64,000 nucleotides of DNA from an uncultured Lentisphaerota bacterium (GCA_903896925.1 CAITZM010000016.1:859-64858), one strand, 5' to 3'. Positions 2,074-54,682 are shown, counted from the first letter of the stretch. Numbers and translations: made by a program. Notes: generated by a model from the letters alone, not told the origin.

Positions 2074-2123
2074 TTTTCCAAGCCTCGGAAAAACAGCGTG
2101 TGCCGTTTCCAATGCTTGGAAAC
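2074..2123. promoter_or_regulatory. Pair of palindromes TTTTCCAAGCCTCGGAAAAA and GTTTCCAATGCTTGGAAAC with centres about 30 bp apart, 17-65 nt upstream of the sialidase-like start codon; candidate operator
   Basis: Read directly in the uxaC-stop to sialidase-start intergenic region. The second site is a perfect palindrome with 8-bp arms. The same motif and spacing recur at about 7250-7300 and about 32721-32768. Confidence 0.45.
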
Positions 2124-2189
2124 CGCCGCCACGAATCCGATCGTTTTTGCTCTGCATATTTCTGCCCGCCATCTTTCTGCCTGCTGTTG

Positions 2190-3389
2190 CTAGGCCATCC
2201 ATTGCATCGCATTTCCATAACTGATGGCGCGGACCAGCGGTCCGAGGTCCGCCGGCAGTTCGCCGGTTTCCACCTTGTCTCCGAGCCAGTCGCACAGCAC
2301 GCGGCGGAAATATTCGTGACGCACCATCGAGAGGAGGCTGCGCGAGTCGGTGGTCATGCCGATGAAGGTCGCGAGCAGGCCGTAGCTGGCGAGGGCGTCG
2401 AGTTGCTGGCGGATGCCTAGCGCGTGGTCGTTGTACCACCATGCCGGGCCGAACTGAATTTTGCCGCGGACCCCGTCGGCCGCGAACGAGCCGGTCAGCG
2501 TCGCGATGGCGGCGTAGTCGGCCGGGTTGAGCGGATAGAGGATCGTGCGCGGCAGGCAGCCCTCGCGCTCCAGTCCGTCGAGAAACTGGCAGAGCGCGGG
2601 AATATCGCAGGCGTTGCCGATGGTCGCGTAGCCGCCGGCGGGCCCGGCGAGCTGGCGCAGGCGGGTGCTGGTCTCGCGCTGCGCGCCGAAGTGCAGTTGC
2701 AGGATCCAGCCGCGCCGGGCGTACTCACGGGCAAACGCGGTCAACGCTTCCGAGTCGAAAGTGTTGACCGCGTGATCGGCGAGCCGGCAGCCGAGGCGCG
2801 CGAAGGCGTCCAGCCGTGCGGCATCGGGAGCTTCGGCGTCGCGCGGCGAGGGCAGCACGCGCGTCTTGAAATCCGATTGCGCGAGCTTGGCGTGCGCGGC
2901 GAGATCGTCAGTGAGCCGGTCCGATGTGCAGAGCACCTCGACGTTGGCGCGGGCGATGAGCTGGCGCGCCGTGAACGCTTTTGTCCGCAGCTTCTCGTTG
3001 CACTGTTCCCAGATGCACGCGGCCGTCTCCGGCGACAGCAACTCGCCGATATCGAAACAGCGTTTCAATTCCAGCGCCGTCCAGTGGAACAGCGGGTTAC
3101 CGAGGGTCAGCGGCACGGTTGCCGCCCACGCATCGAACTTCTCGCGGTCGGTGGCGTCGCCCGTGATCAGCCGCTCCGGCACGCCGGCGATGCGCATCGC
3201 GCGGTGCTTGTAGGGATCGGTGGCGATCCAGAGCTGCGTGATGTTCGCGAACGCGCGGTCCTCGGCGAGCGCGTGAGGATCGAGATGATTGTGATAGTCC
3301 ACAATCGGGAGCCCCGCGGCGTGCTCGTGATAGAGCCGACGCGCCACCGCGGTCTTCAGCAGGAAGTCGTCGTGGATGAAAGCGGTCAT
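2190..3389 (-). CDS. uxaC: Glucuronate (uronate) isomerase
   Basis: The protein MTAFIHDDFLLKTAVARRLYHEHAAGLPIVDYHNHLDPH...YFRRVLCDWLG aligns along its length with E. coli UxaC (HxH metal motif, DREKFDAWAATVP, RHEYFRR). The track ORF 2190..3647 is 5'-overextended. The start was trimmed to the ATG at 3389, which forms an ATGA overlap with the stop of the upstream GH115 gene. Confidence 0.9.
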   Translation of the reverse strand: MTAFIHDDFLLKTAVARRLYHEHAAGLPIVDYHNHLDPHALAEDRAFANITQLWIATDPYKHRAMRIAGVPERLITGDATDREKFDAWAATVPLTLGNPLFHWTALELKRCFDIGELLSPETAACIWEQCNEKLRTKAFTARQLIARANVEVLCTSDRLTDDLAAHAKLAQSDFKTRVLPSPRDAEAPDAARLDAFARLGCRLADHAVNTFDSEALTAFAREYARRGWILQLHFGAQRETSTRLRQLAGPAGGYATIGNACDIPALCQFLDGLEREGCLPRTILYPLNPADYAAIATLTGSFAADGVRGKIQFGPAWWYNDHALGIRQQLDALASYGLLATFIGMTTDSRSLLSMVRHEYFRRVLCDWLGDKVETGELPADLGPLVRAISYGNAMQWMA

Positions 3390-5569
3390 GGTTTGCTCTC
3401 CCTTTGCGCGGCGTGCGCCTGCGCTTGCCGCGCCTGTTCCAGCACGTCGCGGGTTTTCTTCAGTGTGGTTTCCACATTGAGTTTCTTGCAGCCGCGATAC
3501 CAGTTTTCCCACGGGCTCCGGCAATAGTCTTGGGCGAGCACCGGCAGTTGCGCGAACGCTGCCTCGGCTTTGGCGAGCGCTGCGACGCACGCGCCGGTCT
3601 GGCCCAGCTCGAGCGCTTCGTCCGCCAGCAACACCTGCTCCAGCCACGCGCCGGTCTGGAACATGAGGGCGCTTTGATAGATCAGGTTGTCGCGCAGGAA
3701 AGCCGCCTCGCGTTCCGGCAGCGCTGCCGCCGCCGTGCGCGCGTGCAGCAAGGCCAAGGTGAGTCCGGCCTGTTGCGCCGCCAAAGGCTTGAGCGTTTCG
3801 CGCCGCCCGAGGTTGCGCGGATGCATGTCGTTCAGTCCCACCCAGAACGCGTCGTTGGTTGCGGCGGTTGCGGTCGCCGCCGGGTTATGCGCGGCCTGCC
3901 GATCAGGCTCCGCACTGACGCCACCGGTTTGCTTGCCCAGCAAACGCTGTGCGATCTGCTTCAAGGCGGTATGGCCCGCGCCGAACATCTGCCCATCCAT
4001 CAGAAACGGCACCTGTTGTTCGGGATGGAGCTGCCACGCGTTGAAATAGATTTTATAAGCTCGCGCGATAGGCTCCTGTTGGCTGGAGAAACGCATGCGC
4101 ACCCAGTCCGCGAGCCACGCCTCGGGATCGAACGCGTCCATCCGCCATGTCATCTTCGCCGTCGCATCCACGCCCAGCACGAACTCGCGGAGGTTGGATA
4201 CGTTGCAGATCGCATAGGTCCCGGCGCCCTGTTCCGCGGCAGTCTTCAGGCACGCGAACGTCTTGTGCGGCCCCGGCACCTGCGCCAGGTGCGGGCCGGA
4301 CCCGATCAGCCCGTGGTGATAGTAGACGCCGTAGGTGTTCCCCGGATCGCGCGGCGTCGAGTAGAAATCCTGCTGCCATTTCCAGCCGGGCGAGTTGTCG
4401 GCGAAGACGATGATCGTCCCCGCCGGAATCGTGAGCAGCTTCTGCTGGTTCAGCGCCGAGCCTTCCGCCCAGAGTGTGGTGGAGAGCTGGCGCGGCTGGC
4501 GCGGCGCGACCTCGTCGAGGATCTGCACCTGCGCCGCCATCGCCTCGGAGATGAGCCGGCCGCGGTCGGCGTCGGACTGCGGCGTCTGCGGATCAGCCAT
4601 CCACATCGGCCGGTCGGCGATGCCGCGCAGTCCGAGCTGCCAGATCACGTTCGGATAGGCCGCCCATTTCTTGGCGTAGGCGCGCCACACCTCGCGCACC
4701 TCGGCCGGGTGGCTGAAGTAGGAATACTTCAAATCCCGACCGCGCTGCTTCCAGTAGATAAAGTAACTGAACGCACTCACGCCGAGCGGCTCGACGTGAT
4801 GCTGCGACACGAACACGCCGCGGCGCGCGCATTCCTGCACCAGCGCCTCCTCCGGCGGATTCATGATGTCCACGAAGCTGGCGGGGATGATCAGGTTGCA
4901 GCGGCTACGCACGAGCGCCTCGGCCACGGCGCGCATCACCTCGCGCGGCACCACCTGTTTGTAATATGGATAATCGATGCGCCGCTGCCCGCCGCTTTCC
5001 TGCCACTCGGTCAGCAGATCCTCGTCATTGATGAACCAGCCGCGGAACTTGAAGGAGGGCCCGCCGGACGCAAGTTGGACGCCATCCCACGCCAACGTCG
5101 CGCGCGGCTGCGGCGGACGCGAGGCCCAGAACCAGAGCGGGTCCACGCCGAGATATTTTTCGATGAACGCGTAGAGACCAAACATCGTCCCGTGCTCATC
5201 GCTGCCCGCGATGATCAGCCGGTCGCCGCTGGTCTCGACGCGGTAGGCTTCCCACTTGCCCTTGAGCCCCTCGCCAAAGCCCGGCGCGATTTTCTCCAGC
5301 AGCGCAGCGGACTCCGGCCGGTTCAGCGTGACCACGACAACAGAGCCTGCGCTCTCGCCAGCCAGAAGTGTTTGTCCGGTGATTTTGCTCACATCGCTGA
5401 CGAGATCCGCCGCCGCCAGGCGTACGCACTCCGGCTCGCCCGCCGGCACGCAGAGCTTGGCGGTCCGCTGCGGTGACGCCAGTTCGAACGCGGCGGCGTG
5501 AACCGTCAGCAGCGCGATGCCAACGAAGCGCGCCAGCGTCTTTACGGCAGGCATGGGCTCATGGGTCAT
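3386..5569 (-). CDS. Alpha-glucuronidase-like glycoside hydrolase (GH115-like), secreted
   Basis: 727 aa with a signal peptide (MTHEPMPAVKTLARFVGIALLTVHAAAFE). The N-terminal domain has RLIIAGSDEHGTMFGLYAFIEKYLGVDPLWFW, which resembles the GH20b-like GH115 N-domain. FKFRGWFINDEDLL matches the GH115 catalytic-region signature as I recall it. It sits immediately upstream of, and is translationally coupled to, uxaC. Confidence 0.7.
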   Translation of the reverse strand: MTHEPMPAVKTLARFVGIALLTVHAAAFELASPQRTAKLCVPAGEPECVRLAAADLVSDVSKITGQTLLAGESAGSVVVVTLNRPESAALLEKIAPGFGEGLKGKWEAYRVETSGDRLIIAGSDEHGTMFGLYAFIEKYLGVDPLWFWASRPPQPRATLAWDGVQLASGGPSFKFRGWFINDEDLLTEWQESGGQRRIDYPYYKQVVPREVMRAVAEALVRSRCNLIIPASFVDIMNPPEEALVQECARRGVFVSQHHVEPLGVSAFSYFIYWKQRGRDLKYSYFSHPAEVREVWRAYAKKWAAYPNVIWQLGLRGIADRPMWMADPQTPQSDADRGRLISEAMAAQVQILDEVAPRQPRQLSTTLWAEGSALNQQKLLTIPAGTIIVFADNSPGWKWQQDFYSTPRDPGNTYGVYYHHGLIGSGPHLAQVPGPHKTFACLKTAAEQGAGTYAICNVSNLREFVLGVDATAKMTWRMDAFDPEAWLADWVRMRFSSQQEPIARAYKIYFNAWQLHPEQQVPFLMDGQMFGAGHTALKQIAQRLLGKQTGGVSAEPDRQAAHNPAATATAATNDAFWVGLNDMHPRNLGRRETLKPLAAQQAGLTLALLHARTAAAALPEREAAFLRDNLIYQSALMFQTGAWLEQVLLADEALELGQTGACVAALAKAEAAFAQLPVLAQDYCRSPWENWYRGCKKLNVETTLKKTRDVLEQARQAQAHAAQRESKP

Positions 5570-7218
5570 TGCTTTGTCTTCACCTCGGTAAACGGCAGCT
5601 TCTCCGTGTAGACCTTCAGGTTGCGGAACACCATCGCCGTATGGACCATGCAGCGCAGGGCGATGTGGCCGTAGTTGAGGATGCAGCCGGTGTTGGTCCG
5701 CGAGCTGTCGTCAATCTCCAGCAGCACCTTGCCATCGATCGCGCCGCGGATCTTGCCCTCGTGCTGCACGAGCTGCGCCTTGTGCCACTGGTTGTTGGCG
5801 AACGGCGCCGGCGAGCTGCCGAAGCCGATGCGATAGGCGAACGGATTCTTGCGGCTGAAAGCGGTCCCGACATCGTTCCGCACATCGTTCATCTCGCGAT
5901 AAAATTCCCAATGGTAGTTGCGCACATTCTCGCCGTGCACGGTCTGCATGATGCCCGAGGTCTTCTTGGGATAGTCGGCCATGAAGTCCTCGCGCGACAT
6001 GCCGGAGGCGTGGATCATCAGCAGCGCGAGTCCGTTCGGCTTGAGCGCCTTCCACTCGAACTCCACATAGATGTTCCCCTCGAAGGTCCGGTTGCTCCAT
6101 ATGTACACCTGCTTCGGATAAGCATTCCAGCCGTACGGAATATCCGGCGTCTCGATCAGCAAGCCCTCGGGGTGGCCGGCCGGCTTGATGGCTTCGCGAT
6201 AGCCTTGGATGTAGAACTCCTTGATCTGCTCGACGGGCGTTTTGAAATCCAAATCGAACTGCTTCGTCCAGTTCGCGCCGGGCTGGAACGTAAAGTTTTC
6301 CAGCGCGGCCCCCGCGAAGCGGTTTTTGAGTTCGTCCTCGATGCCCTGGTCGAAATCCGGCGCGCCCGCGCGATACAGTCTGTAGAGTTCCCCGCCGCCG
6401 AGCACGCCCGCGAAAAATTCAATCTGCCCGTGGCAGAGCGCGGGGCAACCGGCATAGAGCACGTCGCCGCAGCGGTCGCGGTGGAAGTCCTTGTTGAACC
6501 GGTCGCTCGTGCCGATGAGGATGCCGTTGACGAACAGCTCCGCGCTCTTCGCAGCGTCGTCCCAGGTGACCGCAAGCTGATACCAGCGGAATTTCTGGAA
6601 GTAGTTAAAGGGCACCGCCTGCACCCACGCCTTCTGCGGCGGGTCGAAGCCCAGACGTGGATAAACCGTCCCCTTGAAAAACTTCGCGCGAAACTCATTG
6701 AAGCGGTTCCACTCGAAGCTGAAGTTCGCCTCGGCGACATCGCGCGGCATGGCGTGATCGCTCAGGAACGCATAGGTCGCGAAAAATTTATTATCGATCG
6801 CCATGTGATCGGCGAGGAAGCTGGCCGCCAGATCTTCCAGCGCGAAGAACCACAGCACCAGCGTGCCGCTGGGCTCGTTGAGCGTGTGCCCGCCCGCCAG
6901 CTTGATGGCCGTGTGAATGCTTGTCGGGTTGATGCCCTTGCGGCCATGCAGTTCGAGCACGCGCGCGGAACCGTTGATGCTCTCGTTCGCCGCGAGCGCG
7001 GCCGCGTCGGCGAGATAACGCTGCCTCGCTTGCGGCGCCGTTCCCGCCGCGCCTCGCGCCGGAGGAAACAACGAGCAGGCCGCGACGGCCGCCGTGGAAG
7101 TCTTGAGGAACTGACGCCGGGTGGTTGCATCAACGGGTTTCATGGCCGGCAGTTTAGCGGAAGCCCCGGCGGCCTCAAGCACTTGGACCTGCTGCGCGGA
7201 TGATGGTGGATTGTTCAT
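5566..7218 (-). CDS. Tat-secreted protein with concanavalin A-like (LamG/glucanase-like) domains; putative polysaccharide-active enzyme of unknown family
   Basis: The track ORF 5566..7692 is overextended. A Tat motif TTRRQFLKTSTAAVAACSLF is present. The start ATG at 7218 (MNNPPSS...) has AGGAG 8 nt upstream; the alternative ATG at 7143 (MKPVDATTRRQFLK) is also possible. WYQLAVTWDDAAKSAELFVNGILIGTSD is LamG/ConA-like. ATGA overlap with the GH115 start. Confidence 0.6.
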   Translation of the reverse strand: MNNPPSSAQQVQVLEAAGASAKLPAMKPVDATTRRQFLKTSTAAVAACSLFPPARGAAGTAPQARQRYLADAAALAANESINGSARVLELHGRKGINPTSIHTAIKLAGGHTLNEPSGTLVLWFFALEDLAASFLADHMAIDNKFFATYAFLSDHAMPRDVAEANFSFEWNRFNEFRAKFFKGTVYPRLGFDPPQKAWVQAVPFNYFQKFRWYQLAVTWDDAAKSAELFVNGILIGTSDRFNKDFHRDRCGDVLYAGCPALCHGQIEFFAGVLGGGELYRLYRAGAPDFDQGIEDELKNRFAGAALENFTFQPGANWTKQFDLDFKTPVEQIKEFYIQGYREAIKPAGHPEGLLIETPDIPYGWNAYPKQVYIWSNRTFEGNIYVEFEWKALKPNGLALLMIHASGMSREDFMADYPKKTSGIMQTVHGENVRNYHWEFYREMNDVRNDVGTAFSRKNPFAYRIGFGSSPAPFANNQWHKAQLVQHEGKIRGAIDGKVLLEIDDSSRTNTGCILNYGHIALRCMVHTAMVFRNLKVYTEKLPFTEVKTKQ

Positions 7219-7249
7219 GGTTGCTCCTGTCGCCTGTGACTCCCGCAAG

Positions 7250-7300
7250 TTTTCCAGGGATTGGAAGCCGAAACCGTCGTTTTTTCCAAGCATTGGAAAA
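7250..7300. promoter_or_regulatory. Pair of palindromes TTTTCCAGGGATTGGAAG and TTTTCCAAGCATTGGAAAA with centres about 32 bp apart, 30-80 nt upstream of the Tat-protein start
   Basis: Read directly in the 7219..7336 intergenic gap. The second site has perfect 8-bp arms TTTTCCAA/TTGGAAAA. Confidence 0.45.
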
Positions 7301-7336
7301 GCCCGGGCACAACGCGCAGCGCATGGTTGCTGAAAC

Positions 7337-8770
7337 TCATGGGGCGACTCGTGGTTCCAGCGTGAGGAGCGCGCGGTCGGCGATGAGCACCGGCGAGTCG
7401 TAGATGGGGAGCTGGCGGAAGGCGATGCCTTCGCCCACGCGCGACCAGTTGGCCTGCGGGATGGCGCGCACTTCGCCGGTGAGCAGGTCGGCGTACACCG
7501 GCTCGGTGAACGCGCCGCGCTCCAGCGTGACATCGAGCGGCGTGGTGGTGCCCGCGTCCGCGGGGACCTTGTCCTTGAACCAGAGCGTGACGGCTTGCAG
7601 TCCGCTGGTCTTGTGGCGATAGGCGAAGAGCGCGAGCTTCTTCTGGTCCGGCACGGTAGCGGGATAGTCGGCGATGCGCACGAGCGCGGCATCGAACACG
7701 CTGAACACGCGCTGCGCCGCGGCGTAGGCGGGCTTGGCGTAGGCGACGGTCTGGTCCGGGTTCGAGGCGAGCAGGCCCTTGTAGTTCATGTCCAGCTTCG
7801 GGCCGAAGCGATAGTGCAGATCCATCATCGTGAACAAATTGACGGGCACATCCTTCCCGTGATGGGCGAGCATCCGGCGCAGGTTCCACTTCGCCTGGAT
7901 CGTCTCGGTCATCGGCAACTTCTTCAGCGCAAAGTTTTCCTGATATTTGGAGGTCGCCCCCGTCTCGCCCTGGCGCACGGCGATGGGCGCGCCGCCGTGC
8001 TTGGCGATGAGCGCGCGCAGTTCGTCGATGTTGTGGGTCTGGTCGGGATTCTCCGGGTAGCTGTGCACCGTGATGGCGTCCACGAGCGCGAGCTTGCCGC
8101 ACTGGTGGACGCGGGCTAGGAACGCGTCGGCGTAGGGCTCCTTGTGGGCGAGCGCGAGCGCGTAGAGGCGCGCCTGCGGTTGTTCGCTGCGGATGACCTC
8201 CGCCGTGCGGATGAAGAAATCCGCATAGGCTACCGCGGGCGTCGGGCCCAGGTCGGGCTCGTTCCAGATTTCCCATTCCGTCACGCGGTCGCGATAGCGG
8301 CGCACAAGGGCGCGCACCCAGTTGTCCCACGCCGTCAACGCCGCCGGCGCTTTCGGAATGCCGCCGCCGAGCCCGGTGCCGCCGCCGTCGGGGTAAAGTT
8401 TGTTGCCGTAGGAAACTTCCAGCCACGGCTGCACGCCCTGCGCGAGCGCATCCGCCACCACGGCGTCGAGCCACGCGAAGTCATAGACGCCCTGCTTGCT
8501 CTCGCACTTGGCCCAACCGGTCTGGAGGCGGAGGCCCTTCGCGCCGAGCGGCCCGAGATATTTTTTGTAGTTAGCGTAGATCGCAAAATCGCGGTCGAGC
8601 GTCTCGCCGCCGATGGACCAGCTCGACGCAACAATTTCCTGCGCCGGCCGCGTCTTGATTTTACCGAGGAGCGGAAAAGAAACCGCTGAAGTCGCGGGCG
8701 GTGTGGCGACCACGGTGGCGGTATGCATCGCCAGCAAAGCGGCGAGTAGCGCGAGGGCGTGTAGCTTCAT
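7337..8770 (-). CDS. Clan GH-A TIM-barrel glycoside hydrolase (GH39/GH30/GH79-like; candidate beta-xylosidase or beta-glucuronidase), secreted
   Basis: The track ORF 7337..9013 was trimmed to the ATG at 8770 (MKLHALALLAALLAMHTATVVA, signal peptide). WEIWNEPD matches the clan-A acid/base NEP motif. There is a C-terminal beta-sandwich region. ATGA overlap with the stop of the upstream paralog. Confidence 0.65.
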   Translation of the reverse strand: MKLHALALLAALLAMHTATVVATPPATSAVSFPLLGKIKTRPAQEIVASSWSIGGETLDRDFAIYANYKKYLGPLGAKGLRLQTGWAKCESKQGVYDFAWLDAVVADALAQGVQPWLEVSYGNKLYPDGGGTGLGGGIPKAPAALTAWDNWVRALVRRYRDRVTEWEIWNEPDLGPTPAVAYADFFIRTAEVIRSEQPQARLYALALAHKEPYADAFLARVHQCGKLALVDAITVHSYPENPDQTHNIDELRALIAKHGGAPIAVRQGETGATSKYQENFALKKLPMTETIQAKWNLRRMLAHHGKDVPVNLFTMMDLHYRFGPKLDMNYKGLLASNPDQTVAYAKPAYAAAQRVFSVFDAALVRIADYPATVPDQKKLALFAYRHKTSGLQAVTLWFKDKVPADAGTTTPLDVTLERGAFTEPVYADLLTGEVRAIPQANWSRVGEGIAFRQLPIYDSPVLIADRALLTLEPRVAP

Positions 8771-10233: not shown

Positions 10234-10283
10234 GTCACCTTTTGCTGAATTCTATTTTCTGCGGCTTTTCATCTGGAAACAAA

Positions 10284-11135: not shown

Positions 11136-11138
11136 GGC

Positions 11139-12437: not shown

Positions 12438-12577
12438 AAGGTTTGGTTCTTTCCTGTATCCAGGGCTTGAGAAAAGGCGCTGACGGTTATCCGGGGTTTG
12501 GAAACTGCTGCATGGGAATTTCCACATCTTGGGGGAATAGGTGGTCCCATTTTCGAGCCCTTGGGAAACCGATCGAG

Positions 12578-12599
12578 TATGAAACAGGTTGTTTTCATG
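12578..12599. promoter_or_regulatory. KdgR-box-like palindrome TATGAAACAGGTTGTTTTCATG (IclR-family operator candidate), about 140 nt upstream of the exuT-like gene
   Basis: Near-perfect inverted repeat ATGAAAC/GTTTTCAT. It resembles the KdgR consensus AATRAAAYRNYRTTTYATT (established knowledge for Dickeya/E. coli KdgR). An IclR-family regulator is encoded at 31444..32202. Confidence 0.4.
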
Positions 12600-12770
12600 G
12601 GTGACCGGTCATGGGATAGTGTGCGGACTCGGCGAAAATGAAACCCGACCTGGCGAGCTTCGTATCCTCGCTGTGCTGGCGCGCGCGCTCAATGGCGTCG
12701 CGGCTCGTGCCGTCGCCGGCGGGGTCGACGCCCGCCTTGCGCAGCGCATCCACGAGTACCGGACTTCTGT

Positions 12771-14270: not shown

Positions 14271-14305
14271 TACCTAAAGGGTTTAGATCTTGTTTCCTGG
14301 TCGGG

Positions 14306-15604: not shown

Positions 15605-15694
15605 GACTGGTTTATGCTTCCTACGGTTTTGCTTGGAAGTTGCTCGATGGCGATGGACAAGGGACAGATGCTTTGATCGCCTTGTCGCCGGACT

Positions 15695-17371: not shown

Positions 17372-17373
17372 GG

Positions 17374-19563: not shown

Positions 19564-19596
19564 GGTTCAGAGTGTCCTTGGTTGCCCCAGTCATTT

Positions 19597-22385: not shown

Positions 22386-22389
22386 GGCG

Positions 22390-24542: not shown

Positions 24543-24613
24543 GATGGGTTCCTTTCTCATTCACCTCAAGGCGGGGCGGAGTCATTTCCAGAAGTAGAAG
24601 GGGATTTGTTTGT

Positions 24614-26269
24614 TTATGGTTCACGGGCCGCGACTCCAAATTGCATCGGCGGAGCACCGCGCTGGTGCGCTCCGATATCGGGCGCCTTGCCGGAACAACC
24701 GTCGCTAAAGTTGGGAATCAGTTCGCCGGCGCCGGCGCCGGGGCTGGCGGGATCGAGTTGGAAGACGCCGGTCTTCTTGGCTGTATCAAAACCGGCGCCG
24801 GGCGCATAGCGCGGCTCGCCGCGGACGCCATGGGCTTCCGTACCTGCCGGCACGCGCCCGTTGCAGAGGTCGAAGTCGAAATCGTTGTCGGCGTTCTGCT
24901 TGGCCTCGCTGGCGCTGTAACCTTTGTTTTTCTCGTCGCGGATATGCAGGATATTGTTGCGCGAGACGGTGTGCTTGACGATGCGGTTGCCGCCGAGACC
25001 GCCGGTCGGCAGATACTCATCAGACTGGAAGAGCGTGTTGTGGAAGATGTACTGGTGCCCGGTCATCCAGCCATCGTTGCCGGCAAAACCCATTTTCAGA
25101 AAATAGCCCCCGCCCGCGTTGGGCTGCCACTGGCTGCGCGCGACGATGTTGTTCCAGATATAGAGCGGGCCGATGGAGCACGCCGCGTTGCCGATCATCA
25201 TCATGCTTTGCGTGATGTAGTTGCCCCACACGCGCACATTGCGGCTGCCGCCTTCGACCTCGAGGCCGTCGTCCCAGCAGTGGCTGACGAGGTTGCCGTA
25301 GATGTCGGAGTCAGGGCCGGGCGCGCCCTGGAAGCTGCCGTTGCTGCCGCCGCCGATGCCGTCATTGCACATGTGCTCGAGATCGGAAAAACATTCGTTG
25401 AAGCGGATGACGTGGTTGCCGCCGGCGTTGAAGAGGGAGATATACTGCGGGCCCTGGGTGTGCGTTGGATACTTCGGCTCATACCATGTGCTGCCGTCAT
25501 AGGTCGGATGATGCAGCTTACAGCGCTGGACGATCAGCCGGCGCAGCGTTTTGCAGTTCGAGAAAACTGCGGCGTCGTAGTCGAAACCGAAACCCGTCTT
25601 CGGATTGAGCCGGCCCCAGTCGGAGACGTCGCAGTCCTCGATGACGATGTCGTGGCCGCCCTCGATGCGGATGGCGCCGATGATGCCCTTCTTGGTGTTG
25701 CCGGCCGCGCCCGCCCCTTTGAGCGTGAAGCCGCGCAGGATGATGTTCGAGGCGTTGATCGTGATGCACGCGTCGTGCTGGTGGCGCACGTCCAGCGTCG
25801 CGCCACGGCCGTCATAGACCCGCCATGCGTCGGGCGTGCCGGACTCGGTGATCGCCAGCGGCGTGTTGCTGCTTTCCACGCGCACCGCGGGGCCTTCGGG
25901 AAACTTCTCGCTCCATGTCGTCGCCGTCAGGTTGGTGGTCGTGCGCGTGCCGGCCAGTGTCAGCTCGATGTCATAGGTTTTCGCCGGCGCGAGGTGGACG
26001 ATGCTGCCACGATAGTCCGTCAGACATTCGGCGCACTTGGGAATCGGGTTGTAGCGCATCGGCAGGCCGGTCTTCCACTCCGTGGCGCCCGACTGGCGAT
26101 AGCGCACCAGCACGTCCTTGCCGGCCGCGCCGCCCGGCGGCGACCAATAGAGGCCCAGGCAGTGGAAGGTGGGAATCGCCAGCGGCCCGACCTCGGCGCC
26201 GCCCGCAGGCAACAACGCCAGCAGCAGCCCCGCGCAAACCACACTGGTTGTCAGTACAGATGTTTTCAC
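24614..26269 (-). CDS. Right-handed beta-helix (pectate-lyase-like) secreted protein with an N-terminal beta-sandwich
   Basis: 551 aa with signal peptide MKTSVLTTSVVCAGLLLALLPAGGA. Beta-helix rungs: NASNIILRGFTLKGAG, GGHDIVIEDCDVSDWG, NHVIRFNECFSDLEHMCNDGIGGG. Confidence 0.6.
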   Translation of the reverse strand: MKTSVLTTSVVCAGLLLALLPAGGAEVGPLAIPTFHCLGLYWSPPGGAAGKDVLVRYRQSGATEWKTGLPMRYNPIPKCAECLTDYRGSIVHLAPAKTYDIELTLAGTRTTTNLTATTWSEKFPEGPAVRVESSNTPLAITESGTPDAWRVYDGRGATLDVRHQHDACITINASNIILRGFTLKGAGAAGNTKKGIIGAIRIEGGHDIVIEDCDVSDWGRLNPKTGFGFDYDAAVFSNCKTLRRLIVQRCKLHHPTYDGSTWYEPKYPTHTQGPQYISLFNAGGNHVIRFNECFSDLEHMCNDGIGGGSNGSFQGAPGPDSDIYGNLVSHCWDDGLEVEGGSRNVRVWGNYITQSMMMIGNAACSIGPLYIWNNIVARSQWQPNAGGGYFLKMGFAGNDGWMTGHQYIFHNTLFQSDEYLPTGGLGGNRIVKHTVSRNNILHIRDEKNKGYSASEAKQNADNDFDFDLCNGRVPAGTEAHGVRGEPRYAPGAGFDTAKKTGVFQLDPASPGAGAGELIPNFSDGCSGKAPDIGAHQRGAPPMQFGVAAREP

Positions 26270-26279
26270 GGTTGTCGTC

Positions 26280-27251
26280 TCAGTCGACCGGTATCTTCAA
26301 TGCCTGCATGACGCCCTTGGTGTAGCCGATGGCAAAGAGGCGGCCGAGCGAGCCGTAGCCGGGTTGGTCGTTGGTCTCGCCCGCGAGGGTGGGGACGTGG
26401 TCCACGCGGACCGGGCCGGCAAAGCCGAGCTCGTGGTAGAGCTTCAGCAGCGCGGGCATGTCGGTCGGGCCGTCGTCGTGGAACGTTTCCTCGAACCGCT
26501 GCGCCGTGCCGCGCACGTCGCGGAAGTGGACGAAGAAGATCTTCTTCTGCTCCATGAACCGCCGTGCCCATGCGGCCACGTCGCAACCCATCAGCTTGAA
26601 GTTCGCCTGGCAGAACGTGACGCCGTTGTTTGGACTGGACGCGAGCGCCATCGCGCGCTCGAAGTTCTCCGGCCTGGAGAGGATGCGGGCGATGCCGCGC
26701 AGCACCGGCAGCGGCGGATCGTCGGGATGCATGCCCATGCGCACGCCGGCCTGCTCCGCGACCGGCATCACGCGGCGGATGAAGTAGGCGTAATTCTCCC
26801 ACATCTGCTCCTCGCTGACGGCGCCCGCCTCCGTGAGCGAGGCCGGAATATCGGCGGCGTCGAAACGCGACGTGAGCGCGCCGCCGCGGGTGGGCACATC
26901 GCCGTGCGTGCGGTGCCAGCCGATGCCGGCCATGAAGTTGTAGCAGAGCAGGGGAATGCCGAGCGCGCCCATGTTGCGGAGCATCCTGCAATAGAGTTCG
27001 AGGTCGTCATCGCGCCCGTCGAGGCCGAGCTTGATGCGGCGCATGTCGAACTGGTCGCCTTCAAGCCCATAGACCGTCAACCCGGCGTCGGTGAACCGTT
27101 TCTGGATCGTGCGCAGCGCGTCGAGGTCCCACGGCGCTTTCAGCCCCGTCAGCTCCGGTGCGCACTTGCAGATCGCATGGCGCACGCCCATCTGGCGTGC
27201 GTACTGCCACTGAACGTGCGGCGCCGCCGGAAGAAATTCGGCGATGATCAT
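26280..27251 (-). CDS. uxuA: D-mannonate dehydratase
   Basis: It shares with E. coli UxuA the motifs CYNFM, VRMGMHPDDPP (E. coli VRMAVHPDDPP) and GYGSLGRLFAIGYTKGV. 323 aa, a short form. Confidence 0.8.
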   Translation of the reverse strand: MIIAEFLPAAPHVQWQYARQMGVRHAICKCAPELTGLKAPWDLDALRTIQKRFTDAGLTVYGLEGDQFDMRRIKLGLDGRDDDLELYCRMLRNMGALGIPLLCYNFMAGIGWHRTHGDVPTRGGALTSRFDAADIPASLTEAGAVSEEQMWENYAYFIRRVMPVAEQAGVRMGMHPDDPPLPVLRGIARILSRPENFERAMALASSPNNGVTFCQANFKLMGCDVAAWARRFMEQKKIFFVHFRDVRGTAQRFEETFHDDGPTDMPALLKLYHELGFAGPVRVDHVPTLAGETNDQPGYGSLGRLFAIGYTKGVMQALKIPVD

Positions 27252-28102
27252 GGGCGGGGCTCCTCACGGTGTAGTTCGGGCGCAAACAGCGGCACGCCCA
27301 GACCGAGGTCGGGCAGGCTCAACAGCTCGCCGTGCTCGGCCTCGGTCACGACCAGCCCCAGTGGGCCGGCGGGATCAAACGCGCAGTTGGTGGGATTCTT
27401 TCCCGGCAAGTCGCGTGCGCCGACCTGCTGACCCGCGGCGTCGAAAATTTTGATCTGGCCGGAACCGTAGACCGCCACGTAGAGCAGCCCATCGGTGCCG
27501 AGCGCCATGCCATCCGGGCCGGGCGCGCCGGTGACGTCGCCGGCCCAGATGCGCGCGTTGCGCCACTCGCGCCGTTGCGGGTCCCATTCGCCGATCCACA
27601 GCCGCTGCCGGTAGGTTTCGGCGAGGATCAGGGAGTGGCCGCCGTTCACGAAGGCGAGGCCGTTCGGGAAATATTTTTCGCGTGTGATCACACTGACCTC
27701 GCCGGACGGCGCGAGGCAGCAGGCATAGCCGGTCGGCTCCTGGCGCGAATCGCCGGGACAGGAGAACAGCAGATTGCCGGCCGCGTCGAAGGCGAGGTCG
27801 TTGGGCTTGAAGAAGGGGCGTCCCTCCAGCTGTTCCACGATGCTCACGCAGGCACCGGTCTGCGGGTCAAGCCGGCGGATGGAGTTGTGCCCCGAGTCGC
27901 AAAACCAGATGCGGCCTGCCTGGTCGACGGCCGCACCGTTGGGTCCGCCGCCGGTGTCGACGCGCGTCAGCTCGCCCTGCTGCCAGCGCGCCAGGCCGCC
28001 GCCCTTCAGCTCCACGCACCAGAGCGCGCCGTCGGGCGTGAAGACCGGGCCCTCGGGGAACCGCAGGCCGGTGGCGAGCACGTTGACCGGGTTACTGGGC
28101 AC
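27248..28102 (-). CDS. SMP-30/gluconolactonase/LRE-like (SGL) six-bladed propeller lactonase
   Basis: Motifs GLRFPEGPVFTPDG, PNDLAFDAAGNLLFS and GPDGMALGTDGLLYVAVYGSG. The track start 28165 would overlap the MFS gene by 74 nt. I place the start at GTG 28102, which has GGAGGA 8 nt upstream. ATGA overlap with the uxuA start. Confidence 0.65.
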   Translation of the reverse strand: MPSNPVNVLATGLRFPEGPVFTPDGALWCVELKGGGLARWQQGELTRVDTGGGPNGAAVDQAGRIWFCDSGHNSIRRLDPQTGACVSIVEQLEGRPFFKPNDLAFDAAGNLLFSCPGDSRQEPTGYACCLAPSGEVSVITREKYFPNGLAFVNGGHSLILAETYRQRLWIGEWDPQRREWRNARIWAGDVTGAPGPDGMALGTDGLLYVAVYGSGQIKIFDAAGQQVGARDLPGKNPTNCAFDPAGPLGLVVTEAEHGELLSLPDLGLGVPLFAPELHREEPRP

Positions 28103-29327
28103 GGGTGTAGTCCTCCGCAAAGAATTTCTGCCGCGCCAGCAGGATGAGCGCGGCCCCCGCCACATAGAGCACGCCCAGCGAAGAGAGGCCGAGGCTCAGG
28201 CTGACGTGCTTCTTCACCACGCCGAGCAGCAGGGGCGCCAGCGAGCCGATGGTGAAGCCAAAGAAGAGCATCAGGCCCGTCGCCGAGGAGCGGCAGCGCA
28301 GCGGGACCACGTCGAAAAGGGCGGCGAACAGGTTCGAGTCGTAGCACCCGCGGAACAGGCCGAAGGCGGCCAGCGCGGCGTAGACCAGCACCGCGCTGGG
28401 CGCAAAGCCGAGCAGCGCGATGAACGGCGCGCCGAGCAGCAGGCCCAGCGCCTTGATTTCGATGCGGACCGCCGGGCGGCGCGGGGCGAGCCGGTCGGCC
28501 ATGCGGCTGCCGGCCATCACGCCGACGAAGGCGAACAGGTAGTGGCAGATCATCGCGCAGAAGTTCGCCTCCTGCAGCGGCCGGTGGAATTTTTCCACGA
28601 GGAAGGTCGGCATCCACGTCATCCAGCCGGTGTTGACGAACACCATGCAGCCGAACGCGAGGCTCAGGCAGTAGAAGGTCGGCGTGCGCAGCACGATGCC
28701 GAGCACCTCGCGCGGGCGCGGCGTCGGCTCGGTGGCGATGGTCCCGCCGCGGTCGTTTTGCAGCCGCAGGGCGAGCACCACGGCCAGCAGCAGTCCGAGG
28801 AAGCCGAAGGTGTAGAAGGACGCGCGCCAGCCGTAGTGCTCGCCGACGAAGGCGGCGAGCCAGCTGCTCACCACGATGCCGACGTAGAGCGCGGTCTGGT
28901 GGATGCCCAGCGCCTGCGCCCGCGTGGTGGGATGATGGTGGCCGAGCAGCGCGGTGGCCGCGGGGTAATAACAGGCCTCGCCGCCGCCGGTGGTCAGGCT
29001 GCGGAACAGGACCAACCCGACCAGTCCGCCCGCGAGCCCGGTCATGAGCGTGCCCAGGCTGAAGATGAGCAGGCTCAGGACCACGATCCATTTGCGCGAG
29101 AGGAAATCGCCGAGGCAGCCGGCGATCGGCACCAGCAGGCCATAGACCAGCGTGAAGCCCGTCGCCACAAGCCCCAGCTGCACATCGTCCACGTGCAGGT
29201 CGGCCTTGATCAGCGGCAGGACGGCGTTGAAGATCTGGCGGTCGCCCTGGTTCAGGAAATAGGCGAACCAGAACAGGATCACCAGTTCCCACTTATAAAA
29301 TGGACGCGGTGACTTCATGCTTCCCAT
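28092..29327 (-). CDS. MFS transporter (sugar-acid/anion permease-like)
   Basis: 411 aa with 12 hydrophobic segments. The motif FLNQGDRQIFNAVLP is like the ACS/galactonate-transporter family. Confidence 0.75.
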   Translation of the reverse strand: MGSMKSPRPFYKWELVILFWFAYFLNQGDRQIFNAVLPLIKADLHVDDVQLGLVATGFTLVYGLLVPIAGCLGDFLSRKWIVVLSLLIFSLGTLMTGLAGGLVGLVLFRSLTTGGGEACYYPAATALLGHHHPTTRAQALGIHQTALYVGIVVSSWLAAFVGEHYGWRASFYTFGFLGLLLAVVLALRLQNDRGGTIATEPTPRPREVLGIVLRTPTFYCLSLAFGCMVFVNTGWMTWMPTFLVEKFHRPLQEANFCAMICHYLFAFVGVMAGSRMADRLAPRRPAVRIEIKALGLLLGAPFIALLGFAPSAVLVYAALAAFGLFRGCYDSNLFAALFDVVPLRCRSSATGLMLFFGFTIGSLAPLLLGVVKKHVSLSLGLSSLGVLYVAGAALILLARQKFFAEDYTRAQ

Positions 29328-29330
29328 GCG

Positions 29331-30239
29331 TCAGTGCGTGCCCCCGGTGGCTGCGATGAACTCCACGATGGCCCGACGTGCCGGGTCATTTTCCTCTGCG
29401 ATTTTTCCCGCGATGCTGCCGTGCGTCCGGTCGGCGATCAGCCGGCCGGCGACGCGCTGGTTGCCCGCGCCTTGCAGCAGCGCGACGAGAAACGCATTTT
29501 CTTCCGCACGCGCAGGCATGTCGTGGTCTGCATACAGCACGAGCATCGGTGGCGTATCCTTTCGGGCGAAGTACACCGGCGCGGCCTCGTCGGCCGTCAC
29601 GCTGAACTTGTCAATCCCGCGTTCGGCACGCACCGTATAGTGCGTCATCACCTGCCCGCTCACCGGAATCAGCCCCGCGACGGCCGGGAGGGGTATATCG
29701 TATTTCGCCAGATAGCTTGCATCCATTCCAACCATCAGCGCCAGATAGCCGCCGGCCGAGTGGCCGCCGATGAACAGCTTGTTGGCGTCGCCGCCGTGCT
29801 TTGCGATATGCGCGTGCGTCCAGGCCACCGCCGCGGCCGCGTCCTCGATGTACGCGGGGAATTGCACCTTGGGGCTCAAACGGTAATTGGGCACCACCAC
29901 GCACACGCCGGCGCGTGCCAACCTGCGCGCGACGCCTGGCGTGTCCACATCCCGGTCCGCCAGGTCCTTGCTGCCCATCGTCAGCCCGCCGCCGTGGAAC
30001 CACACCAGCGTTGCAAAGCCCGTCGGGCTGTGCGGCAGATAGACATCGAGTACACAGCGCTGTTGCTCGTAGCCCGTGAGCGCGGCACCGGTCTTGTAGG
30101 GGATGTTGCTCAGCTTCTTGCCGCTGTCCGCGGCCGGCGGCGTCGCGCAACCGCTGGCGAGGGCCAGCACGAGTGTGAGGAGCAGACTATGGCCTAGCCG
30201 CACCGCCTTGGTCGATTGTAGCTGCTGCTGTGTGGTCAT
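29331..30239 (-). CDS. Alpha/beta-hydrolase fold-3 esterase lipoprotein (carbohydrate esterase candidate)
   Basis: Trimmed to the ATG at 30239 (MTTQQQ...LLLTLVLALASGCATP, lipobox LASGC). Oxyanion motif VWFHGGGL; nucleophile elbow GGHSAGGY. Confidence 0.7.
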   Translation of the reverse strand: MTTQQQLQSTKAVRLGHSLLLTLVLALASGCATPPAADSGKKLSNIPYKTGAALTGYEQQRCVLDVYLPHSPTGFATLVWFHGGGLTMGSKDLADRDVDTPGVARRLARAGVCVVVPNYRLSPKVQFPAYIEDAAAAVAWTHAHIAKHGGDANKLFIGGHSAGGYLALMVGMDASYLAKYDIPLPAVAGLIPVSGQVMTHYTVRAERGIDKFSVTADEAAPVYFARKDTPPMLVLYADHDMPARAEENAFLVALLQGAGNQRVAGRLIADRTHGSIAGKIAEENDPARRAIVEFIAATGGTH

Positions 30240-30256
30240 GATGCACTCCCGTCTCT

Positions 30257-31447
30257 TCAGGTTCCGCCGACGATGGGGTACCACTCCGGCCGGCGCGGGT
30301 CCTGGTGGAAGCGCGCATAGTAGTCGCCCTTCTCCTCGAAATAGCGCTCGTACTTTTTCATCTTCTCCTCGTCGAGCTTCACTCCCAGGCCCGGCCCCGT
30401 CGGCACCGCGATCTGGCCGTCGACGTACTTCATCAGCCCGCCCTCGATGATGTCGTCGGTCAGGAAGTGATAGTGCGCGTCGCCGGCGAAGTGCATCTCC
30501 GGGATCGTCGCCGAGGTGTGCAACATTGCCGCCAGCTCGATGCCGAACTCCGCACCGCTGTGCATCGCCACGCCGAGGTTGAAGGTGCGGCAGACGGCGA
30601 CGAGATCCTTCACCCCACGCGGGCCTTCCCAGTAGTGCAGGTCGGTCAGCACGATGTCCACCGCGCCCAGGCGGATCGCCGGGCCGAGGTCGTCGAACTT
30701 GTTCGGATACATGTTGGTGGCGATGGGAGTCCGGATCGCCTTGCGCACGGCCGCGTTGCCTTCCAGGCCCCAGGCCGGGTCCTCGAAATACTCCATGTTC
30801 ATCGGCTCCAGCCGGCGGCCGATGCGCGTCGCCGTCGCCACCGACCAGGTCCCGTTCGGATCGATCCGCAGCCCGAACGACGGCCCCAGCCGCGCGCGGC
30901 AGAGCTCGACGACGCGGGCTTCCTCGTCCGGCGGCATGACGCCGGCCTTGAGCTTCATCGCCTTGACGCCGAGCGTCCCGTGCAGCTCCTCGCAGAGGTC
31001 GGCCATATCCTCGGCGCAGGTGTCGTCGCCGCCCTGCGGCCGGTCATAGCGCCAGAAGAGGTAGGCGATCATCGGCACGGCGTCGCGGACGCGGCCGCCG
31101 AGCAGGTCGCTCATCGGCCGGCCCAGCGCCTTGCCCTGGATGTCGAGGCAGGCCATCTCGATGGCCGCGTAGAGGCGCGAGTTCGACAGGTAGTAGATGC
31201 TCCGCAGCACCTTGAGCTTGATGATTTCCAGCTGGAAGGGATCGAGGCCGAGGATGCGCGGCTTCAGCTTCAGGATCGCCCCGCGCTGGTCGCCGCCGCC
31301 GACCTCTCCGAGACCGACAAGGCCCTCGTCGGTGAAAATTTCGATGATTGTGCGCAGGAGGTAGCCGGGATGGACGCCGGTATTATGGCGCAGCTGCGAG
31401 TTGAGCGGGATCGCCACGGTCCGGGCTTTTACGTCGATGATTTTCAT
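30257..31447 (-). CDS. Enolase-superfamily glucarate-dehydratase-like protein
   Basis: The track ORF 30257..32131 has an Arg/Ala-rich spurious N-terminal extension. The real start is the ATG at 31447 (MKIIDVKARTVAIP), 396 aa. Motifs IDPNGTWS, PIATNM and GPGLGV align to E. coli GudD LDPNGAWS, PTATNM and KPGLGV. Confidence 0.7.
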   Translation of the reverse strand: MKIIDVKARTVAIPLNSQLRHNTGVHPGYLLRTIIEIFTDEGLVGLGEVGGGDQRGAILKLKPRILGLDPFQLEIIKLKVLRSIYYLSNSRLYAAIEMACLDIQGKALGRPMSDLLGGRVRDAVPMIAYLFWRYDRPQGGDDTCAEDMADLCEELHGTLGVKAMKLKAGVMPPDEEARVVELCRARLGPSFGLRIDPNGTWSVATATRIGRRLEPMNMEYFEDPAWGLEGNAAVRKAIRTPIATNMYPNKFDDLGPAIRLGAVDIVLTDLHYWEGPRGVKDLVAVCRTFNLGVAMHSGAEFGIELAAMLHTSATIPEMHFAGDAHYHFLTDDIIEGGLMKYVDGQIAVPTGPGLGVKLDEEKMKKYERYFEEKGDYYARFHQDPRRPEWYPIVGGT

Positions 31448-32202
31448 GGTGCCTTGTGTTTCCTTCCTTGATTGAGAACGGCGGCCTGCCCCAGCAACAG
31501 CTGCCGCCAGCCGGCGAGTTGGGCCTTGGTGTGGCCATGGCGCAGGCCCGTCAGCGTCAGTGCGCCTTGAATCTGTCCTTCCATGTCCAGCAGCGGCACG
31601 GAGATGCCGAAGATGTCCGGCCGGTAGGTGGCCGCGTCGGTCGCGACGCCCTGGCGGCGGACCTCGCGGATCCGTTTCCAGACGGCCTCCGGTTTCTGCC
31701 ACTGCCAGCACTCCGGCGGCGCGTCGTGCAGGATCTGTTCGATCCCGGCGTCGGGCAGCCCGCTCAGCAGCACGGCGCCCGAGGCGCCCAGCGTCAGGTG
31801 GAAGCGCGCGCCGGGCTGGACGGCCAGCGCCATCGGTTGTGACGAGGCCACGCGCAGCAGCGTGACCGCCTCGGCGCCGTCCCGGGCCGAGACCTTGCTG
31901 GCCACGCCCGTCGCCGCGGTCAGCGCCTGCAGCGCATCCTGCACCGGCCGGCCCAGGAGCTCGTGGCGCTGCAGCCGCTCCAGCAGCGGCAGCAGGCCCA
32001 GCCCGAGCGCGCATTGCCCGTCCGCGCCCAGCTGCACCCAGCCGGCGTGCGCCAGGGTCTGGAGGATGCGGTAGCAGGTCGCCGGCGCGATGGACAGGGT
32101 GCGGGCCAGGACGGCTGCGGTCGGCTCGCACCGCCCGCCCGCGACGGCCTCGAGGACCTGGACGGCCTTCCGCAGCACGGGGATCTGGTTCGTCGGCTTC
32201 AT
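31444..32202 (-). CDS. IclR-family transcriptional regulator (KdgR-like), first gene of the minus-strand array
   Basis: 252 aa with an N-terminal wHTH (VLRKAVQVLEAVAG...LARTLSIAPATCYRILQTL) and a C-terminal effector domain. ATGA overlap with the start of the dehydratase-like gene. Confidence 0.8.
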   Translation of the reverse strand: MKPTNQIPVLRKAVQVLEAVAGGRCEPTAAVLARTLSIAPATCYRILQTLAHAGWVQLGADGQCALGLGLLPLLERLQRHELLGRPVQDALQALTAATGVASKVSARDGAEAVTLLRVASSQPMALAVQPGARFHLTLGASGAVLLSGLPDAGIEQILHDAPPECWQWQKPEAVWKRIREVRRQGVATDAATYRPDIFGISVPLLDMEGQIQGALTLTGLRHGHTKAQLAGWRQLLLGQAAVLNQGRKHKAP

Positions 32203-32720
32203 TTCAATAGAGAATAATAGATTTCAATACAGAAACAGGACGGCGTCTGTCAATCCCGTTTTTCGGGCCGTCCTGCGGCGGCGGGACGCCGCTGCCAGGA
32301 GCGGTAATGTCCTGAAGGTAGGGCCGTGTAGAAGCGGCCTCACGGCTCCGTGCTGCACTACGCCGGTGTGAGCCGGCCGCTTATCTTCAGCATGGTGGGC
32401 GGGGTTTTCAACCCCGCGAACCAAGTCCCAGCCTATCACCGAGGAGCTGACACAGCAGTCAAAGGAGGGCGCCTTCCGCCGCGCAACATCAAACCGCAGG
32501 ATAAGCGGCGGCCCACCGCTTCCACCAGGCGATCAAGCAGGCGGCATATGAACAGGAGCCGCTCCGTGTAGCTGTGGAGGTGAGTCCGCGAGGCAAGGGC
32601 TGAGGGTGCCGCGTTTTTGACAAACGCGGCTACAGGCGGTGGTGGCCCTCGTGGGGCTGGGCGGGCGTGTCCAGTTCTCTGGCGTGATTACCAAAGACTG
32701 GAAGGGGCGGGCGCGGTTTA

Positions 32721-32768
32721 TTCCAAGGCTTGGAAGAAACACCACACCTGTCTTCCAAGGTTTGGAAA
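32721..32768. promoter_or_regulatory. Pair of palindromes TTCCAAGGCTTGGAA and TTCCAAGGTTTGGAAA with centres about 32 bp apart, inside a 936-bp non-coding gap
   Basis: Read directly. Perfect 7- and 6-bp arms. They are followed by a GC hairpin CTCCGCC-GG-GGCGGAG at about 32781..32796. Confidence 0.4.
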
Positions 32769-32800
32769 GGTTCGCTTGGGCTCCGCCGGGGCGGAGTGCG

Positions 32801-54663: not shown

Positions 54664-54682
54664 TTTTCCAAGGCCTGGAAAA
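54664..54682. promoter_or_regulatory. Single palindrome TTTTCCAAGGCCTGGAAAA of the TTCCAAG/CTTGGAA family, in a convergent 3'-3' gap
   Basis: Read directly. 7-bp arms. Confidence 0.35.

Follow-up and report, generated by a model that had tools for sequence, protein, structure and literature searches.

Paired palindromes beside carbohydrate-active enzyme genes of a Lentisphaerota bacterium appear to be local copies of a helically phased, REP-like element of its clade

Several kinds of short palindrome recur in bacterial genomes. Repetitive extragenic palindromes (REPs), bacterial interspersed mosaic elements (BIMEs) and REPINs (REP doublets forming hairpins) are believed to be bound by gyrase, IHF and RAYT (REP-associated tyrosine transposase). 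Rickettsia palindromic elements (RPEs), which are about 100-150 bp long and conserved over their full length, are translated in frame inside conserved genes, and the 8-bp highly iterated palindrome of cyanobacteria (HIP1, GCGATCGC) is over-represented across its phylum, mostly inside genes, with no agreed function. Palindromes in tandem also serve as binding sites: the dyads of NrdR and ComK boxes stand at discrete distances of 2, 3 or 4 helical turns, implying dimers that touch on one face of the DNA. The operator arrays of octameric Lrp/AsnC-type regulators (BarR, AsnC, Lrp) consist of 3-5 sites on one face, made of 15-bp dyads with 15-17 bp spacers and centres 30-32 bp apart (PMC10201364). 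REPs are defined by a tetranucleotide tag, GTAG or CGTC, at one palindrome end (PMC3733652), and those of E. coli are reported to lie close to stop codons (PMC12306157). Here we describe a 19-bp palindrome in a 64,000-nucleotide stretch of DNA, called the window below, from an uncultured Lentisphaerota bacterium (GCA_903896925.1 CAITZM010000016.1:859-64858), in which it stands in pairs next to carbohydrate-active enzyme (CAZyme) genes. An earlier reading of the same DNA, referred to as the original prediction, proposed that these pairs are operators of a second, possibly distant regulator. We consider it moderately probable that they are instead local copies of a clade-wide, REP-like palindrome that expands locally and is bound cooperatively, on one face of the helix, by a putative symmetric protein.

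The palindrome, tTTTCCAAnSnTTGGAAAa, occurs in seven good copies in the window, arranged as three pairs and one single site (Table 1). Every copy has the same geometry, TTCCAAG-N-CTTGGAA (7-N1-7, equivalently 6-N3-6) around a core TTCCA-N5-TGGAA, and the gap of one to five nucleotides originally proposed between the half-sites is thus fixed. The exact core was found six times, against 0.01 expected from shuffled sequences, and the 14 defined bases of the 15-mer, with no more than three mismatches, seven times, against 1.21 expected, a count reached in none of 100 shuffles. The 15-mers start at 2076 and 2107, 7252 and 7284, 32721 and 32753, and 54666; the offsets within pairs are therefore 31, 32 and 32 bp, in agreement with the spacing of about 31 bp first noted. 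Matches to the half-site TTTCCAAG numbered six against 1.26 expected (one of 100 shuffles reached six); four of them lie inside full sites, and the other two are isolated and at chance level. A further copy had been placed near 45545: the half-site is there (45554-45561), but isolated half-sites of this kind are as frequent as chance predicts. Similarly, the degenerate copy reported at 12497-12524 does contain degenerate sites, but these belong to a decayed array of four sites, array C, recovered in a relaxed scan for which the mononucleotide-shuffled window yields 0-3 sites at up to five mismatches. The single copy, site E, was confirmed and lies in a genuine convergent gap, between a plus-strand open reading frame (ORF) ending at 54639 and a minus-strand ORF ending at 54698.

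The same element was found throughout a wide clade. One genome per species of bacteria and archaea was scanned with two cores 14-20 bp apart as the query, a pattern for which about four chance matches are estimated in the whole collection. It was present at 118 loci at least, in at least 67 assemblies, and every listed match was labelled as a member of the PVC (Planctomycetes-Verrucomicrobia-Chlamydiae) group; the labels, which are the depositors' own, included Kiritimatiellia, Kiritimatiellales, Pontiellaceae, Tichowtungia, Lentisphaerae, Verrucomicrobiota and 'Spartobacteria' among the listed matches. The statistics that follow refer to these listed loci. A logo of 425 sites is symmetric over 19 bp and returns the consensus given above, with C or G at the centre in 97% of the sites. 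The bases preferred around the centre are specific to the assembly (AATSATT in 46 of 54 sites of one, AAGSCTT in another, ACnnnGT in several), which suggests co-evolution or homogenisation. In DNA fetched without reference to the motif we counted 13 clusters in 117 kb, about one per 9 kb, from which several hundred clusters per genome can be extrapolated. Viral contigs, scanned completely, yielded 29 hits: about ten with typical flanks and spacing, several less typical, and six caused by unrelated coding repeats. The IMG/VR viral or prophage contigs L132-L134, L143, L146, L149, L150, L156 and L157 carry bona fide phased arrays of up to six sites; L130, L137, L141, L147, L154 and L155 were matched only through unrelated 33-nt coding repeats. 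Full-text searching of the literature returned no description of the motif, or of phased palindrome arrays in these phyla.

The arrays are strictly phased with the DNA helix. Clusters contain one to six exact-core sites, and up to eight when one core mismatch is allowed. Pairwise offsets of up to 140 bp fall at 22, 30-33, 41-43, 52-53, 61-66, 73-74, 83-84, 92-97, 104-105, 114, 123-126 and 135-136 bp, with almost nothing between these classes, and define a period of about 10.4 bp; for the 15-bp core, the gap is 16-17 bp in approximately 80% of neighbouring pairs. The range selected by the search does not include the offsets of 22, 42 and 53 bp; the phasing is therefore not an artefact of the way the loci were retrieved, and whole-turn offsets place all sites of an array on the same side of the helix. 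The symmetric 19-bp dyad and the whole-turn offsets, found in at least 118 related loci, fit a dimer binding cooperatively on one DNA face, and this part of the original prediction holds. We regard the phasing as the strongest argument for a double-stranded DNA element bound by a putative protein. The spacers are unrelated between arrays and slightly more alike within one array (identity 0.535 within versus 0.416 between); this residual similarity is weak, and conserved linkers of the BIME type were not seen. Neither 31 nor 32 nt is a multiple of three, so an array with these offsets cannot be a coding repeat, and a protein repeat (FQxLE) was rejected for that reason, the 33-nt repeats of viral contigs being a different thing. 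A CRISPR array was rejected as well: the repeat is only 15-19 bp long, with a period of 22 or 31-32 bp and one to eight units, there are many arrays per genome, and no cas domains occur among the neighbours. When folded as single strands, the pairs within 2066-2131 and 32711-32777 of the window each form one long hairpin, in which a half of the first site pairs with a half of the second, as in a REPIN.

Two pairs of the window do lie immediately upstream of start codons in the CAZyme array, as first noted. Pair A is 15 nt upstream of the ATG of a BNR/sialidase-like gene (2058, minus strand) and 66 nt past the UxaC stop codon, and pair B is 31 nt upstream of the ATG of a DUF1961 gene (7218, minus strand) and 36 nt past the GH39 stop codon. 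Array C lies upstream of an MFS transporter gene, beside a KdgR-like box at 12578-12599. Pair D stands about 500 nt upstream of the IclR gene, 31 nt beyond the stop codon of a small ORF that had been left uncalled (32801-32947, minus strand). Across the listed loci, the arrays adjoin genes of all kinds. Scanning 104 downstream and 84 upstream genes revealed no enriched Pfam family; the neighbours include tRNA synthetases, SecA, Mur ligases, MreC, Ddl, carbamoyl-phosphate synthase and sulfatases, among others, and the largest arrays flank genes for alpha-amylase/CBM48 proteins (likely glycogen branching enzymes), MreC, threonine synthase, AIR-synthase-like, Ddl and IF-2B-family proteins. Coding sequence makes up 86% of the DNA, yet about 70% of the clusters are intergenic. 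Intergenic clusters comprise 88 in tandem, 22 in divergent and 12 in convergent gaps, against 62, 22 and 11 kb of background gap DNA; the split is roughly proportional to the available DNA, and placement is thus independent of gene orientation. Convergent gaps were verified with Pfam, among them one in which a Wzy-type gene and MurJ run onto three sites and another in which a Na/Pi transporter and PhoU run onto an array. Gaps with arrays are large (median 177 bp, versus 38 bp for tandem gaps without arrays). Arrays follow the upstream stop codon closely (median 27 nt, with 30% of arrays within 10 nt), and their distance to the next start codon downstream varies widely (median 50 nt, interquartile range 14-130).

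Roughly one cluster in three or four lies inside a called ORF, and several of these ORFs are well supported. The clearest series is provided by dihydroorotase (pyrC) homologues that are 55-72% identical and range from 419 to 506 amino acids. The difference in length arises mainly between the motifs HAEDER and HHLRRP, and some homologues have a separate N-terminal insertion. This segment measures 57 nt with no site, 87 nt with two sites, 138 nt with four and 201 nt with six, at offsets of 22, 30 or 31 bp. All 12 cores in these arrays are perfect, adjacent sites often have identical centres, and the units are translated in three different frames, as FSTGWKK, FHxVEK and FPQCGK. The pyrC series therefore indicates that the element is inherited at one locus over deep divergence, has no relation to promoters there, and grows by tandem duplication of site plus spacer units. 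Other in-ORF arrays were seen in the inter-domain linker of a PreP peptidase, an ABC permease, a BatA-VWA protein, a GluRS, where the array reads FQTLEK...FQTLES at 30 nt, and a SufBD-family protein.

Orthologous junctions were compared, and sites proved to be partly kept and partly gained or lost. The window and the congener locus L129, in which DUF1961 is 92% identical, have two sites of the GH39-DUF1961 gap in common, with a single base changed in total, and about half of the spacer between those sites differs; L129 has four sites where the window has two, the additional two being upstream. The pair beside uvrA is kept in two further relatives (L122 and L124), in which the flanking DNA has diverged on one side. 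The better conservation of orthologous sites than of spacers suggests selection on the sites. An orthologous TPR-ExbB junction is a 17-bp gap without sites in the window, and in relatives a 75-bp gap with a pair or a 445-bp gap with four sites. DUF1961 orthologues of other lineages are without the motif. At about 5580-5625 of L124, an 18-bp insertion (CCCACCTGAGGCGGGTAA) splits the second orthologous site exactly between its half-sites.

We propose that each palindrome would receive one symmetric dimer of a conserved candidate DNA-binding protein, which would recognise the half-site TTTTCCAA twice, with the two half-site centres about 11 bp apart. Neighbouring sites at 2, 3 or 4 turns would bring dimers into contact on one face, and contacting dimers could build a cooperative nucleoprotein stretch of 50-250 bp. 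Arrays would grow and shrink by tandem duplication or loss of site plus spacer units and would settle where they are tolerated, mostly at the borders of genes, frequently just behind a stop codon, and in some cases in the surface loops of proteins. The role would be generic, either architectural or topological or purely self-maintaining, and would not be specific to the adjoining CAZyme genes. Several points weigh against this model. The phasing could partly stem from duplication of a unit of fixed length rather than from selection, and the perfect cores inside ORFs and the genome-specific centres would also fit an enzyme-driven selfish repeat without benefit to the host. No recurrent neighbouring gene was found among the array flanks as a candidate for the binder; the extent of the clade rests on the 118 or more loci listed, and the distances to start codons are approximate, as they depend on a home-made gene caller. 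A more ambitious version, which we put forward only tentatively, is that the arrays act as a chromatin-like punctuation in Kiritimatiellota: an oligomerising, clade-specific putative protein would sit on several hundred phased arrays per genome and mark gene boundaries, maybe as barriers to supercoiling or read-through transcription, and the arrays would be kept perfect and enlarged by ruler-like copying or gene conversion strong enough to enter essential genes such as pyrC.

That the element is purely selfish appears rather unlikely to us. It would then be a REP- or REPIN-like palindrome copied beside existing copies by a RAYT-type transposase, another site-specific nuclease or integrase, or replication slippage, with no gain for the host and with a phasing set by an enzyme ruler or by how long the copied unit is. 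That orthologous junctions gain and lose sites would agree with such copying, as would the expansion of in-ORF arrays from no site to six with identical adjoining units, the doublet as the commonest form, the location near stop codons known from E. coli REPs (PMC12306157), the homogeneity of centre bases within a genome, the bona fide copies on viral contigs and the folding of a pair into one long hairpin. However, spacers and flanks are not conserved between loci, hence there is no transposable unit larger than the 19-mer, and the consensus carries neither the GTAG nor the CGTC tag (PMC3733652). No transposase family was present among the best 25 families listed for the flanking genes. REP families are specific to a species or genus, whereas the same core occurs here in at least 67 assemblies; orthologous sites are better kept than spacers, and slippage alone would hardly produce a strict spacing of 2, 3 or 4 turns. 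A function of the transcribed hairpins, as terminators, 3'-end stabilisers, processing sites or translational attenuators, is improbable. Each site can form a hairpin of 7-8 bp, stable folding was computed for two of the three pairs (z = -4.1 and -2.9), many arrays begin within 10 nt of a stop codon, and canonical intrinsic terminators are not in excess in the part of the window scanned. Helical spacing, however, has no rationale for an RNA, arrays occur in divergent gaps at the background rate, the terminator scan gave none at the arrays, the sites have no U-tract after them and no Rfam hits, and neither the third pair (z = -0.9) nor the single site (z = -0.45) folds better than shuffled sequence does. 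At symmetric positions of the sense strand, mismatches of the G-U type (65) do not exceed those of the C-A type (82); this lack of a G-U excess gives no sign of selection on an RNA hairpin and argues against an RNA role.

We likewise see little chance that the palindrome is a general promoter or activator element, be it the site of a housekeeping or alternative sigma factor or of a CRP-like global activator setting transcription starts. Neighbouring sites are separated by 16-17 bp, which is the optimal length of a sigma-70 spacer, TTGGAA is similar to the -35 hexamer TTGACA, and arrays favour larger gaps, probably those between operons. Against this, neither spacers nor flanks contain a conserved -10-like element; a sigma-70 scan was empty in arrays A and B and gave a single 9-of-12 match at the edge of array C, its -35 hexamer overlapping the first site; the 22- and 42-bp offsets, single sites, convergent gaps and in-ORF arrays do not fit, and the distance to start codons is broad. 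Operators of a pathway-specific dimeric regulator of CAZyme and uronate genes, either the local IclR or a protein encoded elsewhere, are very unlikely indeed. In favour of this proposal, three blocks of the CAZyme array that resemble transcription units have an array (A, B or C) 15-31 nt upstream of their start codons, and pair B is conserved in L129 together with the downstream untranslated leader. The same kind of site nevertheless stands beside unrelated housekeeping genes in at least 67 assemblies, in convergent gaps and inside pyrC, PreP and ABC-permease ORFs, DUF1961 orthologues of other lineages have no site, and at about one cluster per 9 kb the density greatly exceeds that of a single regulon. 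The original prediction had named the distribution relative to gene starts as decisive; this distribution is random, and the operator reading therefore fails, and with it the second regulator of the CAZyme array. The motif had been set apart from the KdgR-like box, and the two sequences do differ; an IclR/KdgR operator was also rejected because the known IclR box has its half-sites the opposite way round to the palindrome. Neither the verrucomicrobial LexA box TGTTC-N4-GAACA, which is unrelated to it (PMC4951493), nor the GTAG-tagged REPs of Opitutus, a different sequence class (PMC3733652), could be matched to the element.

DnaA boxes, and with them oriC, do not seem to account for the element in general. 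In some lineages (MWEZ, CAZNGD, JAHDSS, JAAZBB, DBPO) the half-site TTTTCCACA does match the DnaA-box consensus TTWTNCACA, and in L009, L013, L017, L047, L057, L058 and others the full site resembles two inverted DnaA boxes one base apart. In the window and most assemblies the half-site is TTTTCCAAG or TTTTCCAAT, unlike a DnaA box. No dnaA gene was present in any fetched locus, and the largest arrays are not beside dnaA or dnaN.

Compared with the systems described above, the element belongs, by analogy, with both repetitive extragenic palindromes and cooperative binding-site arrays. With the REPs and BIMEs of enterobacteria and the REPINs of Pseudomonas it shares a short imperfect palindrome, present here in an estimated several hundred copies per genome, that is mostly extragenic, independent of orientation and often just past a stop codon, that occurs as singlets, doublets and arrays, and that is present or absent at orthologous junctions. 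The fallback of the original prediction, a REP-like genome repeat, is accordingly closer to the truth than the operator, but the tag and the conserved linkers of REPs are missing. Unlike them, the palindrome measures no more than 19 bp and is rich in AT within a GC-rich genome, its core is common to a whole class or phylum rather than to one species, its spacing is strictly helical and copies stand in frame inside ORFs. The 15-bp core and the prevailing 16-17 bp gaps recall Lrp/AsnC operator arrays. Those arrays serve one or a few promoters and have AT-rich centres, whereas the present sites have a C or G centre, also use 22-bp offsets, are genome-wide and not tied to promoters, and have a putative binder; no Lrp/AsnC gene recurs beside them. 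Whole-turn tandem spacing is shared with NrdR and ComK boxes, which differ in belonging to small regulons (nrd and competence genes), in their consensus, and in forming no arrays of up to eight sites and none inside ORFs. Like RPEs, the palindrome is translated in frame in conserved protein genes, but its unit is 19 bp plus a free spacer and its copy number at one site varies between lineages; like HIP1, it is over-represented across a wide clade, but it is longer and forms phased arrays.

Genes of the window were annotated with Pfam scans and a home-made, self-trained codon-usage caller. The minus-strand block runs, in order, from the BNR/sialidase-like gene (1-2058) through UxaC, GH115, DUF1961 (5566-7218), GH39, a GH42-like gene, SDR and the MFS transporter, with further genes up to IclR (31444-32202); beyond IclR lie uvrA (33139-36000, plus strand) and then housekeeping genes. 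The window comes from a metagenome contig. Its UvrA belongs to a 90%-identity cluster, and the cluster members that carry names are labelled Kiritimatiellota or Verrucomicrobiota, which puts the organism itself in Kiritimatiellota/Verrucomicrobiota. The KdgR-like box (ATGAAACAGGTTGTTTTCAT) directly adjoins array C, and the gap thus holds a real local operator and the generic repeat together. The region between the IclR start codon and array D (32224-32700, about 480 bp) lacks a convincing ORF and gave no hit with Rfam or ARAGORN, and a non-coding RNA gene downstream of the pair at 32719 was rejected, as neither Rfam (gathering and E-value thresholds) nor ARAGORN returned anything credible. The small uncalled ORF encodes a very basic protein of 48 amino acids (MAMGQQLRVRVKRAARIRRIKRLK...AKPAAKPAAAAAP) whose tail has a histone-H1-like look. 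It is conserved beside uvrA in three relatives (32801-32947 of the window, minus strand; L122 5758-5877; L124 about 5650-5760), has no Pfam hit, and was left uncalled by the source pipelines in L001-L003. In the window and L122 the palindrome pair comes just after the stop codon of this ORF; L124 has one intact site and one that is split. In L122, the uvrA-adjacent pair has a 23S_rRNA_IVP gene on its far side instead. Around site E, the plus-strand ORF (54373-54639) encodes no more than the C-terminal piece of a transglutaminase-like protein and is perhaps a pseudogene, and the minus-strand ORF (54698-55717) ends in a PEP-CTERM-like sorting tail (PEPTTLTLCALSGLGALLYVRRRK).

Table 1 Palindrome sites and arrays in the window and arrays inside ORFs of related loci
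Feature	Sequence source	Position	Site sequence	Remarks
Site A1	window	2074..2092	TTTTCCAAGCCTCGGAAAA	1 mismatch to the 19-bp consensus; closest to the BNR gene start
Site A2	window	2105..2123	GTTTCCAATGCTTGGAAAC	31 bp from A1
Site B1	window	7250..7268	TTTTCCAGGGATTGGAAGC	closest to the DUF1961 start; one base differs in congener locus L129
Site B2	window	7282..7300	TTTTCCAAGCATTGGAAAA	perfect consensus match; 32 bp from B1; identical in L129
Decayed array C	window	12456..12568		sites at 12456, 12487, 12518 and 12550; offsets 31, 31 and 32; 3-5 mismatches each (relaxed scan)
Degenerate site D0	window	32687..32705	ATTACCAAAGACTGGAAGG	5 mismatches; 32 bp from D1 (relaxed scan)
Site D1	window	32719..32737	TATTCCAAGGCTTGGAAGA	orthologous site kept in L122 and L124
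Site D2	window	32751..32769	TCTTCCAAGGTTTGGAAAG	32 bp from D1; kept in L122; split by an 18-bp insertion in L124
Single site E	window	54664..54682	TTTTCCAAGGCCTGGAAAA	convergent 3'-3' gap
pyrC array	L057	4923-5011		
pyrC array	L159	1579-1730		
pyrC array	L160	1529-1565		
pyrC homologue	L161			no site
In-ORF array	L104	2862-2907		
In-ORF array	L061	4388-4455		
In-ORF array	L041	769-815		
In-ORF array	L065	5342-5386		
In-ORF array	L082	3090-3135		

These observations carry a warning for the inference of regulons from metagenome-assembled genomes: a neat pair of palindromes before CAZyme genes mimics an operator and is a genome-wide repeat. The motif accounts for odd protein insertions (FSTGWKK, FHxVEK, FPQCGK) and, in practice, offers a compact signature by which contigs and phages can be assigned to the clade. 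A REP-like distribution, strict helical phasing, a class-wide core and expansion inside essential ORFs make an unusual mix, and it is this mix that renders a selfish nature, an architectural role, or both, testable. The element is, moreover, a direct handle on a putative and probably abundant DNA-binding protein in a poorly studied phylum.

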